Virus genome (UHGV): UHGV-0060588
Direction: 5' to 3' (one strand)
Origin: a virus
DNA: 16,053 bases
In this document: piece by piece, positions 5,895-12,449 of the stretch
Position numbering within the stretch: position 1 is the first letter of the stretch
Layout of the letters: every line of letters starts with the position of its first letter
The notes under the pieces: model-generated
What the model saw: only the letters and a program-made list of their open reading frames with translations
Databases searched by the model: none
What the model was told of the DNA's origin: nothing
Made by a program: the position numbers and the translations under genes

Positions 5895-6436
5895 TCCTCT
5901 ACCTCACCCATGTTCGTTGTTACAATTTTACCTACAGGCTCCGCAACACTGAAAATAATCTCAGTCGGTGCCGTTTCTTCGGCGGATTCAACTGGTTTCT
6001 CTTTGCCAAGGCCAAGTTTCGCAGCGGCAAACGTAGCAGAGATACCTGCAGCCCCTGTCTCAGTGAAGTATGCCTCTTCCAATGCCTGTGCTGTCTCATA
6101 GGCTTCGGCAAATGCGGGAATCTCACGCAGCCACAGCTTAATAATCGGGATAGTGACGCCGATGTGTAGGGCGAAGCGGGCCAGTGACGGTGGCTTATCC
6201 TGAATCAGCGGGCGTTCGTCACCCTTAGACGTGGGCGCAAGTTCCCATGACGTGCGGTCGAAGAACTCGATTAACGCGTCGCAATAGTCCGGGTCCCACA
6301 ACGCGGCGGAATTACGGGACGATTGATAAAGGCTCTGTTTACCGCGCGGTCGTTTACGGCGACGGTTTGCGCTAACAGCTTCTTCATGTGCAGCTTGCAC
6401 CACCTCTGGCGATGGCTGCTTGAGTTTCAGCTTCAT
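5891..6436 (-). CDS. putative terminase small subunit (TerS), about 181 aa from ATG 6436
   Basis: Directly upstream of and translationally coupled to TerL. AAGGGGA SD 5 nt before ATG 6436 (the track ORF extends to 6475). Basic N-terminal segment followed by a helical segment, consistent with DNA binding; assignment is mainly positional. Confidence 0.55.
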   Translation of the reverse strand: MKLKLKQPSPEVVQAAHEEAVSANRRRKRPRGKQSLYQSSRNSAALWDPDYCDALIEFFDRTSWELAPTSKGDERPLIQDKPPSLARFALHIGVTIPIIKLWLREIPAFAEAYETAQALEEAYFTETGAAGISATFAAAKLGLGKEKPVESAEETAPTEIIFSVAEPVGKIVTTNMGEVEE

Positions 6437-6529
6437 AGAATCCCCTTGCATATGCGTCTGACCATCAGAGCGCACCAGACGCGCCCTACGCGTCTAAAGG
6501 GATTATATAAGGGGATTAGGCAGGATGTA

Positions 6530-6553
6530 CAGAAAAGCCCTCCGTAGAGGGCT
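6530..6553 (-). terminator. rho-independent terminator (AGCCCTC-CGTA-GAGGGCT then UUUUCU on the minus strand)
   Basis: 7-bp stem with 4-nt loop, 10 nt downstream of the last gene of the accessory operon (stop 6564) and upstream of TerS. Confidence 0.5.
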
Positions 6554-6563
6554 TGTGGTGTGA

Positions 6564-6719
6564 CTATTCGGTTATATCGCCGCCGTCTACCAGTGCTAAC
6601 GGGATTCTCACTTCACCGTTGAATGTTTCGGCGTACCAGAACTTCTCACATTGCGTTACGTTGAAAACATCAAGTTCTGATGTAGCGCCTGTCTTCCAGT
6701 ACACCGTTAACTTTTTCAT
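6564..6719 (-). CDS. hypothetical protein, 51 aa (below the ORF-track cutoff)
   Basis: ATG at 6719 preceded by GAGGAGG with a 7-nt spacer and overlapping the stop of the upstream gene (ATGA). Found by manual translation. Confidence 0.45.
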   Translation of the reverse strand: MKKLTVYWKTGATSELDVFNVTQCEKFWYAETFNGEVRIPLALVDGGDITE

Positions 6720-6952
6720 ACATCACCCTCCTCTCGTGCGATACGTTGCTCTGTTTTAGTGATACCACGGCGCGTGAATAGCACCGGGCTTGTCTTAACG
6801 TGCGTCATGAGACGATTGTTATAAATTACGTGGCGCTCGCAGTTCACGTCTTTACTGTACTTCGCAATCGTCATTTCGTTGAGGCCAGTTTGTCGGCATG
6901 TCTCCGCCATCGTGCCGAATTCTTTAATCAGGTTAGGAATGCTGGTAATCAT
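6716..6952 (-). CDS. small putative helix-turn-helix DNA-binding protein, 78 aa from ATG 6952
   Basis: The track ORF starts at GTG 6976; ATG 6952 has a GAGGAA SD and overlaps the upstream stop (ATGA). The segment FGTMAETCRQTGLNEMTIAKY looks like an HTH. Confidence 0.5.
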   Translation of the reverse strand: MITSIPNLIKEFGTMAETCRQTGLNEMTIAKYSKDVNCERHVIYNNRLMTHVKTSPVLFTRRGITKTEQRIAREEGDV

Positions 6953-7119
6953 CCTAAGAAATTCCTCGTTGACCACATCGCATTCGGATATTTGTTATCC
7001 CGGTCCTGCACTACGGCAATCATGTTACCGCGTTGCACGAGGCAAAAGTGCCGCTGTTGCTCGCCGTTATAGCGCCGCCATATTGCTTCTTCGATTGCTG
7101 CGTTGATGTCACTGAACAT
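6949..7119 (-). CDS. hypothetical protein, 56 aa (below the ORF-track cutoff)
   Basis: ATG at 7119 sits 2 nt after the stop of the upstream gene and is preceded by GGGGTGA; its own stop overlaps the next start (ATGA). Manual translation. Confidence 0.4.
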   Translation of the reverse strand: MFSDINAAIEEAIWRRYNGEQQRHFCLVQRGNMIAVVQDRDNKYPNAMWSTRNFLG

Positions 7120-7121
7120 AA

Positions 7122-7304
7122 TCACCCCACTACCTCATCGCCAAGCCACGCCGTTTCTCGTATATCATCGACCACACAAGCGGCGTGCTCACGGCTAATT
7201 GCAAAAATGTAGAAGCTAAACTTCTTCCCGTCGGCGTCGATGTGGTTAACCGAGTAGGGTTTCCACAGGACGCCATCAATTACTACTGGCTTAGGCGACT
7301 CCAT
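7122..7304 (-). CDS. hypothetical protein, about 60 aa from ATG 7304 (track ORF 7122..7388 starts at GTG)
   Basis: Open frame in the coupled minus-strand operon. ATG 7304 with a GGTGAAG SD keeps the overlap with the upstream gene to 14 nt, whereas the GTG start would overlap by about 100 nt. Confidence 0.45.
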   Translation of the reverse strand: MESPKPVVIDGVLWKPYSVNHIDADGKKFSFYIFAISREHAACVVDDIRETAWLGDEVVG

Positions 7305-7530
7305 ACGCTTCACCACATTTAATGCACGTGGCTCGATGTAACCCGCCAACCACATGTAAGTAGTAGTCATGCGCACAAGGCTTTTCACCCTCTTTCAACT
7401 TATCAAGCAACAACTTAAATGCCTCCAGTTGAAACTCACCGTTAATCGACAGTTGCCCGCTTAACGTCTGTTTCTCCGACTCAAGCACCAGAATACGGCG
7501 CTCGAGTGACGCGATTGTGATTTTAGGCAT
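7291..7530 (-). CDS. hypothetical protein, 79 aa; coiled-coil N-terminus and C-terminal Cys/His cluster (possible zinc ribbon)
   Basis: Start overlaps the upstream stop (TAATG). Heptad-like LERRILVLESEKQTLSGQL and C-terminal CAHDYYLHVVGGLHRATCIKCGEAYG. Confidence 0.5.
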   Translation of the reverse strand: MPKITIASLERRILVLESEKQTLSGQLSINGEFQLEAFKLLLDKLKEGEKPCAHDYYLHVVGGLHRATCIKCGEAYGVA

Positions 7531-7766
7531 TATTCGGCCCCCTCATAAAAATCTCCATTTCGGTAATCCCCATCGAAATCGTCAGAAATAGCGCACCCCT
7601 TGTTCAGGTTGAAGCGGTTAATCAGTTCACGGCGAGTCTCGTAAAGCGACTCTACCATTTGCTCCGCTACTGCGATTTTAGTATTCAGAACGTGCATCAC
7701 GTGGCTTACGTCTACGCCGCCGTTAACGGCCTCTACCATCATCTTTTCGTATTCACGGTCAGTCAT
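7530..7766 (-). CDS. hypothetical acidic protein, 78 aa
   Basis: ATG 7766 is 3 nt after the upstream stop. Asp/Glu-rich C-terminus (SDDFDGDYRNGDFYEGAE). Confidence 0.5.
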   Translation of the reverse strand: MTDREYEKMMVEAVNGGVDVSHVMHVLNTKIAVAEQMVESLYETRRELINRFNLNKGCAISDDFDGDYRNGDFYEGAE

Positions 7767-7769
7767 TCT

Positions 7770-7907
7770 TTACGCTCTCCCCACATGCGATTGAGATACT
7801 TGTTCTTGTCCGGCCCCGGGAAACTGTTTCTCGCGTGTCGGGAACGGGGTGTGACTGACTTTACGGCCTACCCGTAATGGCTGGCTTACTGGACCTTGTT
7901 CGCTCAT
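7770..7907 (-). CDS. hypothetical protein, 45 aa, Gly/Pro/Gln-rich (below the ORF-track cutoff)
   Basis: ATG 7907 overlaps the upstream stop (ATGA) and is preceded by GGGAGA; the stop lies 3 nt before the next start. Low-complexity sequence, so coding status is uncertain. Confidence 0.35.
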   Translation of the reverse strand: MSEQGPVSQPLRVGRKVSHTPFPTREKQFPGAGQEQVSQSHVGRA

Positions 7908-8101
7908 TTTACAATCTCCCATTTAACGCCGTGGAAGCCATCACCTTCATCGTTACCAAAGTCTATGAAAATATCGCAGTCGTCGTCGGAGACTATATAA
8001 CCGAAACCAGTAGCTGTCGGGTTGTATACATCATACACTTTACCCTCTGTCACATAGTCAAGGGCGGCTAACCAGAGAATTTTAGCGGCTTTAACTTTCA
8101 T
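7904..8101 (-). CDS. hypothetical acidic protein, 65 aa
   Basis: ATGA overlap with the upstream gene. Very acidic C-terminal half (VSDDDCDIFIDFGNDEGDGFHG). Confidence 0.5.
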   Translation of the reverse strand: MKVKAAKILWLAALDYVTEGKVYDVYNPTATGFGYIVSDDDCDIFIDFGNDEGDGFHGVKWEIVK

Positions 8102-8247
8102 TTCTTCTCTCCTGCATAGGCTGCTTTCAGTGTCTGCATAGCGGCGAACCAGAACGCGTCCGCCTGGATGCTGTTGCTCAGGTTACTGACAGCGATATGT
8201 GCCATCAATTGTGCGTCTTTGAATGCTTCGATATCTGTGATTTTCAT
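8098..8247 (-). CDS. hypothetical protein, 49 aa, predicted helical (below the ORF-track cutoff)
   Basis: ATG 8247 overlaps the stop of the first operon gene (ATGA), and its own stop overlaps the next start (ATGA). Manual translation. Confidence 0.4.
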   Translation of the reverse strand: MKITDIEAFKDAQLMAHIAVSNLSNSIQADAFWFAAMQTLKAAYAGEKK

Positions 8248-8432
8248 TTATCATCTCCGTAAAAAGCCGCCACTTGTCCAACAATGATAATAAAATCATC
8301 CATACTCACGTTAACACTAACTGATTCGTCGCTAGCACCGTCGGTACAAGTTATAGATAATGTCCCGTCCCGGCACTTCTCTATCTCCATGTAATCCCCC
8401 CAGTTATCTGTATGCTTAATCTTAGTCATCAT
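8244..8432 (-). CDS. hypothetical acidic protein, 62 aa; first gene of the accessory operon
   Basis: GGAG-type SD (GGAGTAGAGAGAA) before the ATG; sits downstream of promoter P4. Asp/Glu-rich. Confidence 0.5.
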   Translation of the reverse strand: MMTKIKHTDNWGDYMEIEKCRDGTLSITCTDGASDESVSVNVSMDDFIIIVGQVAAFYGDDK

Positions 8433-8466
8433 TTCTCTCTACTCCGTTCTCGTTGTTGATGGAGTA

Positions 8467-8495
8467 AATATAATAGGGTCTAGGATAATAGTCAA
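8467..8495 (-). promoter_or_regulatory. sigma70-type promoter P4 (TTGACT-N17-TATATT) driving the accessory operon
   Basis: Minus-strand -35 TTGACT (plus 8490-8495), 17-nt spacer, -10 TATATT (plus 8467-8472), between the lysis-operon terminator and the first accessory gene. Confidence 0.5.
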
Positions 8496-8517
8496 CTAGT
8501 CATTACGGAAAATAGAT

Positions 8518-8551
8518 AAAAAAAAAATCCCGGCTGGGTCAGGGCCGGGAT
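8518..8551 (-). terminator. strong rho-independent terminator (8-bp stem ATCCCGGC/GCCGGGAT followed by U10 on the minus strand)
   Basis: Perfect GC-rich hairpin and a run of 10 A on the plus strand (T on minus), about 65 nt downstream of the endolysin stop. Confidence 0.8.
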
Positions 8552-8615
8552 AAAACTGGAGAGTAGAGGGATGAAGCAGGAGGTGATTTAAGTATCGTAG
8601 GATTAGTCTCAGGTG

Positions 8616-9101
8616 TCAACCTTTCACCGCGCGCCCGATAGCCTCCGCCTCCTGCCACGGCTTACCGTCGAACAGCGCAAGACGCCCGGCGGTACGGCGA
8701 CGCAGACCGAGTAATGGTTTGCCGTTCTGGTTGATGAACAGCGCCAGCTTAGCCCGCAGTGTCGCAATATCACCAGAACGCAGAGCCTTACCGGTTCCGG
8801 TAGTAGCCGCAATCACACCGGCACCCGCGTTATAGACCAGGTCACACACAGCGTCGAACTGCGCCTGTGTCAGGGAGTGGTGTGCTGCCGCATCAACCGC
8901 AGCTACGGCCTTAGCCATATCGCGATTCAGTAACAGGAGGCCTTGGCCAGGGGTGATGGTCTTACCTTCATACACATGAGGGCCATAGCTTCCGTAGCCT
9001 ATGGTTAAGTATTTTTCCGAAGGTGTCGCGCGGTAGGCGGTCCCGCGGAAATCTTCCCAAGCCGCAGTAAACTTGAGGCCGTTGTCACTCATCGAGCGCA
9101 T
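8616..9101 (-). CDS. endolysin, phage lysozyme (T4/lambda-type glycoside hydrolase family 24), 161 aa
   Basis: Lysozyme signature FTAAWEDFRGTAYRATPSEKYLTIGYGSYGP (catalytic Glu/Asp/Thr context). GGAG SD 8 nt before ATG 9101, which overlaps the HNH gene end. Confidence 0.85.
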   Translation of the reverse strand: MRSMSDNGLKFTAAWEDFRGTAYRATPSEKYLTIGYGSYGPHVYEGKTITPGQGLLLLNRDMAKAVAAVDAAAHHSLTQAQFDAVCDLVYNAGAGVIAATTGTGKALRSGDIATLRAKLALFINQNGKPLLGLRRRTAGRLALFDGKPWQEAEAIGRAVKG

Positions 9102-9604
9102 AAAGAGAACTCCTTGTGGTATTTATCTCGGGCTTCGCTAGCTACTAACTCAGCGAACTCAAGGTCATCGAAGTAACCGAAAAACTTGCGCACACCTTTT
9201 TGCAAACGGATTCTCACCATCCATTTCCCTTGCTGTCTATGGACGCCTGATACTCCGCTGGTGTTGTTGCGCGATAACCCACGGTTGCGGTTGTTGTCCT
9301 GCGAGTCACATTCTCTCAGGTTACAAAACCTATTATCGTCTCTTACCCCGTTCCTGTGGTCTATCTGCCCGCTGGGCCACTCTCCTGTTATATAGAACCA
9401 TGCAAGCCTGTGTTGCCGTAGGTATTTACCTTTGAGCATGATTACTTTATACCCGTCCGGGTCTCTCCCGTCTGGCACAGTCCCTTTAGGGGCTTTTGAA
9501 CTAACCGTCTTAAGCCACGTGAATAACCCCGTGTCAGGGTTGTAATCTAAAACGCTACGAACATAGTCACGGCTAAGTTCATTATCTGAAATGTTTCGAG
9601 ACAC
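9089..9604 (-). CDS. HNH-AP2 homing endonuclease, about 171 aa from GTG 9604
   Basis: HNH motif QHRLAWFYITGEWPSGQIDHRNGVRDDNRFCNLRECDSQDNNRNRG and AP2-type C-terminus GVSGVHRQQGKWMVRIRLQKGVRKFFGYFDDLEFAEL. GTG 9604 has a GGAGGA SD 7 nt upstream; the track start at ATG 9655 has none and would overlap the upstream gene by 70 nt. Confidence 0.8.
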   Translation of the reverse strand: MSRNISDNELSRDYVRSVLDYNPDTGLFTWLKTVSSKAPKGTVPDGRDPDGYKVIMLKGKYLRQHRLAWFYITGEWPSGQIDHRNGVRDDNRFCNLRECDSQDNNRNRGLSRNNTSGVSGVHRQQGKWMVRIRLQKGVRKFFGYFDDLEFAELVASEARDKYHKEFSLCAR

Positions 9605-9854
9605 GCTTATGTCCTCCGTATGACAGCCACGCCTGTCGAATCTGACGCAGCGCAACTAATGTGATTAATGTCTCAGGCAACGTGGGCGACATGCTGCCCT
9701 GTAACAGGTGAATGCCCCCGGCAGCGCAGACAATAGCGGTCAGGATATAGAGCACCCGACCAAATAGCCCGTCGTCAACGCTGGGGTGATACACATTAAA
9801 CAGCGATGTGCCTCCGATTGCCAGCATACCGCCGAACCAGAATAACTCATTCAT
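9582..9854 (-). CDS. small membrane protein with two predicted transmembrane segments (holin/antiholin-like), 90 aa from ATG 9854
   Basis: Internal ATG 9854 has a GGAGG SD and overlaps the holin stop (ATGA); the track ORF 9582..9935 begins earlier, inside the holin gene. Two hydrophobic stretches (LFWFGGMLAIGGTSLF and VLYILTAIVCAAGGIHLL). Confidence 0.55.
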   Translation of the reverse strand: MNELFWFGGMLAIGGTSLFNVYHPSVDDGLFGRVLYILTAIVCAAGGIHLLQGSMSPTLPETLITLVALRQIRQAWLSYGGHKRVSKHFR

Positions 9855-10920: not shown

Positions 10921-11124
10921 TCACTTCTCCTGTTTACCAAGTCGCTTAGGTGAGCAGATAGCGCGTACCTCTGAGTCGTTGGGCTTGTCACCCTGAAACA
11001 GAAAGTGCGCGTTCTCTGCGGCGCGTGCCGCTGACTGGCACGCCTCCATCGAATAAAACGTTTCTGATGCCGCTAGCTGCATCTGGCCTGCGGACAATAC
11101 CCAGATAAATAATATGCTGGTCAT
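10921..11124 (-). CDS. small protein with N-terminal signal-peptide-like hydrophobic segment, 67 aa from ATG 11124
   Basis: MTSILFIWVLSAGQMQLAAS followed by a polar domain with two Cys. Its stop overlaps the next start. Track ORF 10921..11139. Confidence 0.45.
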   Translation of the reverse strand: MTSILFIWVLSAGQMQLAASETFYSMEACQSAARAAENAHFLFQGDKPNDSEVRAICSPKRLGKQEK

Positions 11125-11612
11125 TTGATCACCCCGCATTTAGAGCACTGCTGTAAGTCGCTACACCACAGAACCAAACGATAGTCATGTTCACATTCCT
11201 GTGTGTCAATCTTGTATTCCACTATGTCTGCGTATGTTCCATCCCAAATCCACGACCGCTTTTCTGCTGCTACACTGTGTTTCGGCTCCTCCCCGTTGCG
11301 ATACCGGATAAATACCATAGTCCCATCCGGCACAGGTTGTCGTGCACCATAATGAGGCCTCCAGGCGTTGTACTGAGTATCTTCCTTACGGCAACCAGAT
11401 TGCTCTGCTGCTATATAAGCGCCTACGTCACCTGTAGCTGTAGCCAACGCCTTATGCAACCCCTTAATATGTTCTGACGCATCACGTAACTGATTCTTGA
11501 GTGACAACACCTCGTACGCCAGGTCTTCGCACTGTTGCTTGTACGGGTTGCTATTTACCTGCTGCCGTAGTTGGTCAATCAGCCACTCGAATACTTCGTT
11601 TTTGTTACTCAT
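11121..11612 (-). CDS. hypothetical protein, 163 aa from ATG 11612; C-terminal Cys-rich segment
   Basis: GAGGAGAG SD 7 nt before ATG 11612 (the track begins at TTG 11639). C-terminal ECEHDYRLVLWCSDLQQCSKCG. Confidence 0.55.
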   Translation of the reverse strand: MSNKNEVFEWLIDQLRQQVNSNPYKQQCEDLAYEVLSLKNQLRDASEHIKGLHKALATATGDVGAYIAAEQSGCRKEDTQYNAWRPHYGARQPVPDGTMVFIRYRNGEEPKHSVAAEKRSWIWDGTYADIVEYKIDTQECEHDYRLVLWCSDLQQCSKCGVIK

Positions 11613-12248: not shown

Positions 12249-12449
12249 TCACACTTCTGACGGCTCTGGTAACGGCATCCAGTGTGTCACGTACTTATCA
12301 TAGTGATTCCAGAACGGCTTTCTCCCGTCATCAGGAACGATGTAATAGTCGTGCTGAACTGCGTTATTCAACGTTTCATACACCAGAAACTCTTTATCAG
12401 TACTTCCGTTACCTGGTAGCATCTCACTACACTTAATCCACTCGCTCAT
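12249..12449 (-). CDS. DUF551 domain protein, 66 aa
   Basis: MSEWIKCSEMLP...VTHWMPLPEPSEV matches the recalled DUF551 signature (W-I-x-x-x-E-x-LP near the N-terminus, VTHWMPLPEPP-like C-terminus). ATGA overlap with the upstream gene. Confidence 0.7.
   Translation of the reverse strand: MSEWIKCSEMLPGNGSTDKEFLVYETLNNAVQHDYYIVPDDGRKPFWNHYDKYVTHWMPLPEPSEV

Follow-up and report, generated by a model that had tools for sequence, protein, structure and literature searches.

The viral genome UHGV-0060588, analysed here as a single stretch of 16,053 nucleotides (nt; the window), carries a block of ten very small open reading frames (ORFs) between its endolysin gene and the gene for the terminase subunit TerS. 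The 2.2 kb around this block are 88–94% identical to more than 200 deposited genomes of E. coli and Salmonella siphophages of the subfamily Guernseyvirinae, and the best matches of the block region are Kagunavirus phages, for example 590B, fBC-Eco01 and the BASEL phages Bas74 and Bas76. Judged by these matches, the window is a genome piece of a Kagunavirus (Guernseyvirinae) of E. coli, with an identity of approximately 91% to published phages. The block is already present in hundreds of database genomes and is an uncharacterised example of a familiar phage feature; in the deposited relatives its genes are recorded nearly all as hypothetical proteins, with rare labels reading NinH, DUF2737, ‘RNA polymerase inhibitor’ and ‘RNA-binding protein’. 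Every gene in this part of the window lies on the minus strand. The gene order begins, at a divergent control region close to 13.5 kb, with a long series of small ORFs, passes through two holins and an HNH endonuclease ORF, and continues with the endolysin (9101-8616), the block, TerS (6436-5891) and TerL (5894-4644) to the portal and head genes.

The features of the block are given below in the direction of transcription, with the genes numbered g1 to g10 and product lengths in amino acids (aa). Counts of blocks refer to a comparison of 44 loci, the window included, in which the sequence lying between the motifs of P2 and T2 was extracted and its ORFs were clustered; pN/pS is non-synonymous divided by synonymous polymorphism relative to related phages, and pI the isoelectric point.

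8467 to 8495, minus strand: P2, the block promoter, TTGACT-N17-TATATT; 10/12 consensus match, hexamers invariant and spacer variable in the aligned relatives
8433 to 8466, minus strand: leader and ribosome-binding site (..ACGGAGUAGAGAGAA AUG) for whichever gene stands first; conserved though the first gene differs among loci
8244 to 8432, minus strand: g1, 62 aa, pI 4.2, optional cassette in the first slot; 6/44 blocks, pN/pS 0.25
8098 to 8247, minus strand: g2, 49 aa, phrog_2180, backbone; 44/44 blocks, pN/pS 0.13
7904 to 8101, minus strand: g3, 65 aa, acidic, optional cassette in the slot between g2 and g4; 10/44 blocks, predicted SH3-like beta-barrel
7770 to 7907, minus strand: g4, 45 aa, disrupted DUF2737 gene; 14-bp deletion after codon 26 with a frame shift
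7530 to 7766, minus strand: g5, 78 aa, phrog_1402, backbone; 44/44 blocks, pN/pS 0.085
7291 to 7530, minus strand: g6, 79 aa, phrog_9023, backbone; 35/44 blocks
7122 to 7304, minus strand: g7, 60 aa, phrog_10509, genus backbone; 39/44 blocks, pN/pS 0.077
6949 to 7119, minus strand: g8, 56 aa, phrog_5407, genus backbone; 39/44 blocks, pN/pS 0.044
6716 to 6952, minus strand: g9, 78 aa, NinH-like helix-turn-helix protein; 44/44 blocks
6564 to 6719, minus strand: g10, 51 aa, phrog_22569, optional cassette in the last slot; 6/44 blocks, pN/pS 0.09
6529 to 6554, minus strand: T2, intrinsic terminator closing the block, identified by fold and conservation
6502 to 6531, minus strand: P3, promoter-like TGTACA-N18-TATAAT for TerS and the structural genes, outside the block; conserved, found in the scan for 10/12 matches

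The ten ORFs are tightly packed between 8432 and 6564, and the ORF coordinates bear out the description given in a first-pass annotation of the sequence, namely ten products of 45–79 aa with four below 60 aa. The start/stop overlaps reported there are equally real: five of the nine junctions are ATGA overlaps and one is TAATG, the others being a 14-nt overlap and two gaps of 2–3 nt, and a GA-rich ribosome-binding site stands ahead of each of the ten genes. In every frame pN/pS lies between 0.04 and 0.38, and the ten ORFs are therefore genes rather than chance ORFs. The products had also been described as including at least four strongly acidic proteins. Three are clearly acidic, with 18–21% Asp plus Glu (g1, pI 4.2, net charge -7; g3, pI 4.3, -6; g5, pI 4.6, -8), whereas two others are merely mildly so (g7, pI 4.8, -4; g10, pI 4.7, -3).

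The boundaries of the operon are defined by conserved transcription signals. Promoter-like sites as such are not enriched in the window (20 found, compared with 17.4 expected from shuffled sequence), and support for P2 therefore rests on conservation. In an alignment of approximately 45 related loci from two genera, the hexamers of P2 (8495-8467), and of a further promoter, P1, upstream of the block, are invariant and their spacers variable, a pattern which, at the level of sequence, is the signature of a used promoter. Matches to the consensus at 10/12 positions number only three in the window, one per intergenic gap around the block. At the distal end, T2 consists of an 8-bp hairpin (6554-6535) followed by UUUUCUGU, with a folding energy of -15.2 kcal/mol (z = -4.7), and in Jerseyvirus-like relatives its stem has undergone compensatory changes from GCCCTC/GAGGGC to GCCCGC/GCGGGC. 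The upstream terminator T1 is an 8-bp GC-rich hairpin (8551-8527) followed by U10 (8527-8518; -13.8 kcal/mol). Both terminators are conserved, with stems that differ by compensatory changes in the Jerseyvirus-like loci; a consensus terminator scan of the window picked up neither, and an Rfam scan of 6400-8700 returned only sub-threshold look-alikes of terminators. The promoter and the terminator before TerS that the first-pass annotation had proposed are thus confirmed, as is its overall picture of an operon of small genes, neither structural nor lytic, with its own promoter and with terminators at both ends. Its ‘lysis-operon terminator’ upstream of the block is indeed a strong terminator, T1, but one preceded by a conserved promoter of its own (P1, 8619-8591).

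On the TerS side, the start of P3 falls inside the tail of T2, and TerS begins at 6436. The intervening TerS leader (6437-6500, minus strand) is conserved and is predicted to fold into two adjacent hairpins (-25.5 kcal/mol), in which the segment CGCGUCUG has two alternative partners, AGACGCG upstream and CAGACGC downstream. The modelled fold may act as a switch of the attenuator kind or belong to the pac region.

Across the 44 loci the stretch between P2 and T2 ranges from 997 to 2668 bp, with a backbone in constant order, g2-DUF2737-g5-(g6)-g7-g8-NinH, each member of which is found in 35–44 of the blocks (the DUF2737 gene in 43). Seven of the ten genes belong to the genus backbone; g7 and g8 occur in all Kagunavirus-type blocks (39/44) and in none of the Jerseyvirus type, and four genes are kept across the subfamily, namely g2, DUF2737, g5 and the NinH-like g9. 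Between the backbone genes lie fixed slots (before g2, between g2 and g4, g4 and g5, g7 and g8, and g8 and g9, and after g9), which hold at least 25 alternative small-ORF families in addition to those of the window. Among these alternative cassettes are one with a DUF3850/ASCH-like domain and several small membrane proteins, and none has an informative function match. The label ‘RNA-binding protein’ found in relatives belongs to the DUF3850/ASCH cassette, which lies between g7 and g8 elsewhere, and to no gene of the window. In sequence comparison the block is therefore half conserved module and half exchange platform, and not a free-form island; part of its content does vary between related phages, but a simple variable island is contradicted by the conserved backbone. 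In some contigs the relatives of g7 (proteins P0016 and P0021) are in-frame fusions of g7 to the g6 N-terminal coiled coil or to the g5 N-terminus, with the intervening sequence deleted, and these deletion-fusions, as read from the sequences, show that the operon tolerates internal recombination.

Two of the backbone genes have direct homologues in lambdoid phages. The product of g9 is 31% identical to lambda NinH over 51 aa spanning the helix-turn-helix region (E = 5e-9), and also matches P22 NinH and phrog_268 (E = 8e-31). Lambda NinH is described as a homodimeric protein that binds and bends DNA and mimics Fis (PMC7166090), and by homology g9 would be a dimeric Fis-like DNA binder and bender. 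The helix-turn-helix product announced in the first-pass annotation is thus real, although nothing speaks for its being a host-takeover factor. Transcription of the NinH gene has been observed in a Kagunavirus, K1B4, by RNA sequencing (RNA-seq); according to the main text of that study, which classifies the NinH gene alone, it peaks with a large ‘middle’ class that includes lysis and structural genes, and the early class comprises four genes only (PMC12645636). Because the sampling was coarse and poorly synchronised, these data show only that the NinH gene is transcribed.

The second homologue is g4, which on sequence grounds is a disrupted member of the DUF2737 family. Counted simply among the ten ORFs in the first-pass annotation, it is the frameshifted remnant of a 52-aa gene. 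The 14 bases GGAACTGATGAAAC are present in every aligned relative, including the otherwise near-identical L004, and missing from the window, the only sequence in which this deletion (junction 7829-7830) is seen. After the frame shift the product continues into a foreign basic tail, and the conserved core of the family (PF10930 profile positions 22-48) is lost. Whereas the intact 52-aa orthologue matches PF10930 with 38.9 bits (cutoff 25 bits) and has at its end the ATGA overlap with g5 that is usual here, the g4 of the window has no Pfam match, PF10930 included, because the deletion shifts the frame after residue 26. Either the gene has been knocked out in nature, or the source sequence of the window was wrongly assembled. 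Relatives of DUF2737 are found in P22, HK97 and Stx phages.

The remaining products are less easily placed. In searches of Pfam, NCBIfam, PADLOC and PHROGs g1 matched no family, and g1, g2, g8 and g10 yielded nothing beyond PHROGs without assigned function; PDB sequence searches with g5, g6 and g9 returned nothing informative. The backbone element of g5 is its N-terminal 57 aa, most blocks matching residues 1-57 only, and the acidic-aromatic C-terminal tail (SDDFDGDYRNGDFYEGAE) quoted in the first-pass annotation is a minority variant; g5 also has a weak match of 18 residues to P22 NinZ. The product with a coiled coil and a Cys/His cluster is, as described there, g6, in which an N-terminal coiled coil is followed by a C-terminal CxHDY...CxKCG putative zinc motif; its N-terminal half is conserved and its C-terminal half variable, and a homologue search found the family nowhere outside these phages. 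The same motif is common to the C-termini of g6 (7294-7375) and of a 172-aa ORF at 11639-11124 (11124-11200; pairwise E = 0.006), in both cases preceded by a coiled-coil-like segment, and could represent a small zinc-binding module that the genome employs in two places.

For g7, the start was placed at the ATG at 7304 rather than at an upstream GTG, because the long ORF matches the PHROG profile only from residue 29 onwards and because of the annotated orthologues. One GenBank record names this protein a ‘T7 Gp2-like RNA polymerase inhibitor’, an annotation that proved not reproducible as a family assignment. No sequence or profile similarity to T7 Gp2 (PDB 2WNM, 2LMC) was detected (hhalign probability 0.7%), phmmer against PDB gave no match, and Foldseek against PDB gave nothing significant and did not retrieve Gp2. 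The predicted structure (predicted local distance difference test score, pLDDT, 84) has a generic beta-beta-alpha-beta fold, which as a model is compatible with Gp2, and several unrelated folds score as well as or better than Gp2 against it. Moreover, the C-terminal strand of g7 is devoid of arginines, unlike Gp2, in which Arg56 and Arg58 contact the beta-prime jaw of E. coli RNA polymerase. The structure predicted for g3 is a compact SH3-like barrel carrying one acidic loop. Its best structural neighbour is Gp54 of phage Bas11 (PDB 9AXB); both proteins are SH3-like barrels of approximately 64 aa from E. coli siphophages, that of g3 being a model. A cold-shock/oligonucleotide-binding (OB) protein was also considered for g3 and rejected in favour of the SH3-like barrel, there being no profile or fold match to the CspA-type OB fold.

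Immediately upstream of the block, the promoter P1 and the terminator T1 delimit a second, much shorter transcription unit:

8591 to 8619, minus strand: P1, sigma-70-type promoter, TTGACA-N17-GATACT; 10/12 match, hexamers invariant in Kagunavirus and Jerseyvirus-like loci, spacer variable
8518 to 8584, minus strand: candidate non-coding RNA of ~65 nt transcribed from P1, with its start near 8584 and the T1 hairpin and U10 at its 3′ end

The TGA within the -35 hexamer of P1 is the stop codon of the endolysin gene, and the unit is retained in loci where the upstream gene differs. The 5′ half of the candidate RNA is CU-rich (ACCUCCUGCUUCAUCCCUCUACUCUCC), its 5′ 35 nt are predicted to be unpaired, and it contains no start codon. 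Its core UCAUCCCUCU is invariant and the loop CUGACCC conserved across genera, with a compensatory C-G to U-A change in the stem. The P1-T1 motif is present as a single copy per genome, and only in contigs of 40.8–44.2 kb, a length that fits the genome size of the subfamily, and in one short fragment. No Rfam family matched the candidate RNA, and it is not annotated in the GenBank records inspected. The unit shows the anatomy of a small RNA (sRNA) gene and the sequence features looked for in the Hfq type, with a promoter of its own, no coding potential, a single-stranded seed and an intrinsic terminator with at least seven U residues; the U run measures 7–11 across loci, and long U tails have a role in Hfq-binding sRNAs (PMC5558911).

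Its seed is the complement of ribosome-binding sites of the GGAG type generally, including the conserved first-cistron leader of the block (GGAGUAGAG). The best predicted duplex involves the start region of g8 (-36.6 kcal/mol, approximately 5 standard deviations below the mean), and the TerL start region ranks only among the best 1–13% of windows. As g8, the top predicted target, is absent from Jerseyvirus-like phages that keep the candidate RNA, the predicted duplexes single out no specific target. We tentatively suggest that P1-T1 could be a dedicated, subfamily-wide gene for an sRNA of ~65 nt, acting as an anti-Shine-Dalgarno riboregulator of the accessory operon and/or of late genes or host mRNAs; the 5′ half (ACCUCCU...UCAUCCCUCUACUCUCC) resembles the 3′ end of 16S rRNA and would pair with the g1 leader, the g8 start and the TerS/TerL junction.

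In its general plan the P1-T1 unit resembles the lambdoid P_R'-t_R' unit (lambda 6S RNA; P-late/t-late of P22). Both combine a strong, constitutive-looking promoter with a transcript of ~60 nt and a strong terminator, and both lie beside lysis genes and upstream of structural genes. However, P1-T1 is downstream of the lysis genes and P_R'-t_R' upstream of them, and, unlike in the lambdoid late unit, separate promoters serve the block and TerS. Q antitermination of the lambda kind was considered for P1-T1 and rejected, as no Q-like protein was found among the larger ORFs of the window and the transcript start is not conserved between genera; since the initially transcribed sequence is not conserved, a conserved pause-inducing element at this position is unlikely. 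In one relative, L019, the P1 region is replaced by sequence that places a P2-type -35 motif, TAGTTGACTA, immediately ahead of the CU-rich segment, an arrangement that suggests recombination between the two promoter units.

We consider the block itself to be, more probably than not, an accessory small-gene operon of the Guernseyvirinae, a non-essential, fitness-tuning module akin to the nin and ea genes of lambdoid phages. Host sigma-70 RNA polymerase would start at P2, transcribe ~1.9 kb and stop at T2, the ten cistrons would be translated as a coupled chain, and TerS, TerL and the structural genes downstream of T2 would be promoted separately. Single-ORF cassettes, each bringing its own ribosome-binding site and ATGA junction, would be exchanged in the fixed slots by recombination. 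The products would be single-domain proteins of 45–79 aa, most likely binders of nucleic acids or proteins, including whatever host targets they may have, rather than enzymes; the predicted g3 (SH3-like barrel), g7 (beta-beta-alpha-beta) and g6 (coiled coil and zinc motif) resemble small protein-binding modules. The operon as a whole would modulate DNA transactions of phage or host as well as host physiology, without a structural, lytic or packaging role.

The comparison with the nin (ninA-ninZ) and ea regions of lambda, P22 and HK97 is based on shared organisation, in that these too are runs of very small, overlapping and coupled ORFs transcribed by host polymerase, and their genes are dispensable in the laboratory. 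It is also based on homology, which is direct for NinH (g9) and DUF2737 (orthologues of g4) and weak for g5 and P22 NinZ; g1, g2, g3, g6, g7, g8 and g10 have no lambdoid counterpart. The differences are considerable. The block lies between lysis and terminase genes of a virulent siphophage, in contrast to the nin region, which lies between the replication genes and Q; it has its own promoter and terminators and is independent of N antitermination; and it lacks the recombination genes NinB and NinG and the phosphatase NinI. For its position a closer parallel is P22, in which the accessory ORFs rha, orf25, orf80 and orf59c likewise occupy the lysis-terminase interval as non-essential cargo, and the argument from position in the first-pass annotation is partly right. 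These P22 genes, however, bear no sequence relationship to the block and belong to the Q-dependent late transcript, without a dedicated promoter-terminator unit. The break in DUF2737 in the window, with an intact gene in the closest relative L004, is consistent with dispensability.

Several observations weigh against this interpretation. Dispensability would follow from the analogy with lambdoid nin/ea genes and from one frameshift, and five of the genes (g2, g5, g7, g8 and g9) are strongly conserved, with pN/pS of 0.04–0.13 and presence in 39–44 of the 44 blocks, which argues for more importance than is typical of dispensable cargo. Eight of the ten products are without an informative homologue and none has a demonstrated function; the match of g9 to PF06322 (E = 2.3e-4, 21.5 bits) falls below the gathering cutoff of 29.8 bits. 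Use and timing of the promoters are predictions, and sampling in the single RNA-seq study was coarse and poorly synchronised. A genome-reduction paper on the phage seszw (PMC9825161), examined as possible evidence for dispensability, concerns a Skatevirus and is uninformative for the block.

A different function was proposed in the first-pass annotation, which saw in the block host-takeover or anti-defence genes and in its acidic products possible DNA mimics. Stated for the present data, at least the optional cassettes g1, g3 and g10 would encode inhibitors of host anti-phage systems, and the acidic tail of g5 might be another, some of them acting as DNA mimics. The slot-wise turnover of cassettes does match the pattern of known anti-defence loci, and g1, g3 and g5 are acidic, with pI values of 4.2–4.6. 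Nevertheless, none of the ten products matched an anti-defence, DNA-mimic (Ocr/ArdA type), takeover or other defence-related family in Pfam, NCBIfam, PADLOC or PHROGs, and the same is true of the alternative cassettes. The models of g3 and of the mildly acidic g7 are compact globular domains and not extended charge arrays, and the net charges of g1, g3 and g5 are only -6 to -8. The claim of anti-defence activity and DNA mimicry is unsupported and partly contradicted.

The phenotype of relatives points in the same direction. Bas76 carries homologues of g1, g2, g3, g7, g9 and g10, and Bas74 all of these except g1, yet the BASEL study reports high sensitivity to restriction-modification systems and variable sensitivity to Old for its Kagunavirus isolates (PMC11990801), which speaks against these proteins having a general role like that of Ocr. 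This indirect argument reaches neither the full-length acidic tail of g5, which is absent from both phages, nor activities directed at other systems. The likeness of g3 to Bas11 Gp54 can be read either way, given that Gp54 is a small phage protein sensed by CapRel-SJ46 (PMC11578894), and is a trigger of immunity rather than an inhibitor. With no family match and with carriers from a restriction-sensitive group of phages, an anti-defence or takeover function is unsupported, and we regard a counter-defence island as rather unlikely.

It could alternatively be argued that the backbone sets up late expression, or the initiation of packaging at the adjacent TerS/pac region, which we consider improbable. 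The operon would here be part of a longer late transcript, with the NinH-like g9 as DNA bender, g6 as zinc protein and g7 as possible RNA polymerase binder being the candidate factors, a set of roles that is no more probable than the proposal to which it belongs. The operon lies directly upstream of P3 and TerS in every genome and its backbone is strongly conserved; NinH-type proteins do bend DNA, and the K1B4 NinH gene, as classified in the main text of that study, peaks together with structural and lysis genes (PMC12645636). The profile, phmmer and Foldseek comparisons of g7 described above speak against the polymerase binder, Jerseyvirus-like relatives manage without g7 and g8, and the window yielded no recognisable Q-like antiterminator or activator. 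Finally, that the ORFs are mostly non-functional filler, packed tightly by chance in a compact genome, is scarcely credible, because even though g4 is indeed broken and most of the ORFs are without homologues outside the subfamily, pN/pS is well below 1 in all ten frames, each gene has a ribosome-binding site and precise junctions, and the gene order of the backbone is kept across two genera.

Some features of the neighbourhood are of separate interest. The block is not the sole array of tiny genes in this phage, as a second and larger one extends from ~13.3 to 10.2 kb; the leftward small ORFs upstream include one encoding a DUF551 protein (12249-12449, minus strand; 43.8 bits). Between holin and endolysin lies the HNH endonuclease ORF (9089-9655, minus strand; PF13392, 47.6 bits), whereas in most relatives the holin and endolysin genes overlap directly. 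The full-length ORF was otherwise found only in L027, the copy in L004 being split in two frames, and L032 and Bas74 carry a version with 44% identity. The arrangement resembles the insertion of a homing endonuclease within the lysis cassette.

Kagunavirus and Jerseyvirus phages are isolated often, and have been proposed for therapy and as synthetic-biology chassis. For such uses, an insulated block of ~2 kb with fixed insertion slots is a natural landing pad for payloads, and its seven conserved small proteins form a shortlist for study, for which the annotations ‘RNA polymerase inhibitor’ and ‘DNA mimic’, tempting as they are, find no support in the data. The part most worth an experiment is the candidate RNA beside the block, which, if real, would be a subfamily-wide phage riboregulator overlooked in hundreds of deposited genomes.

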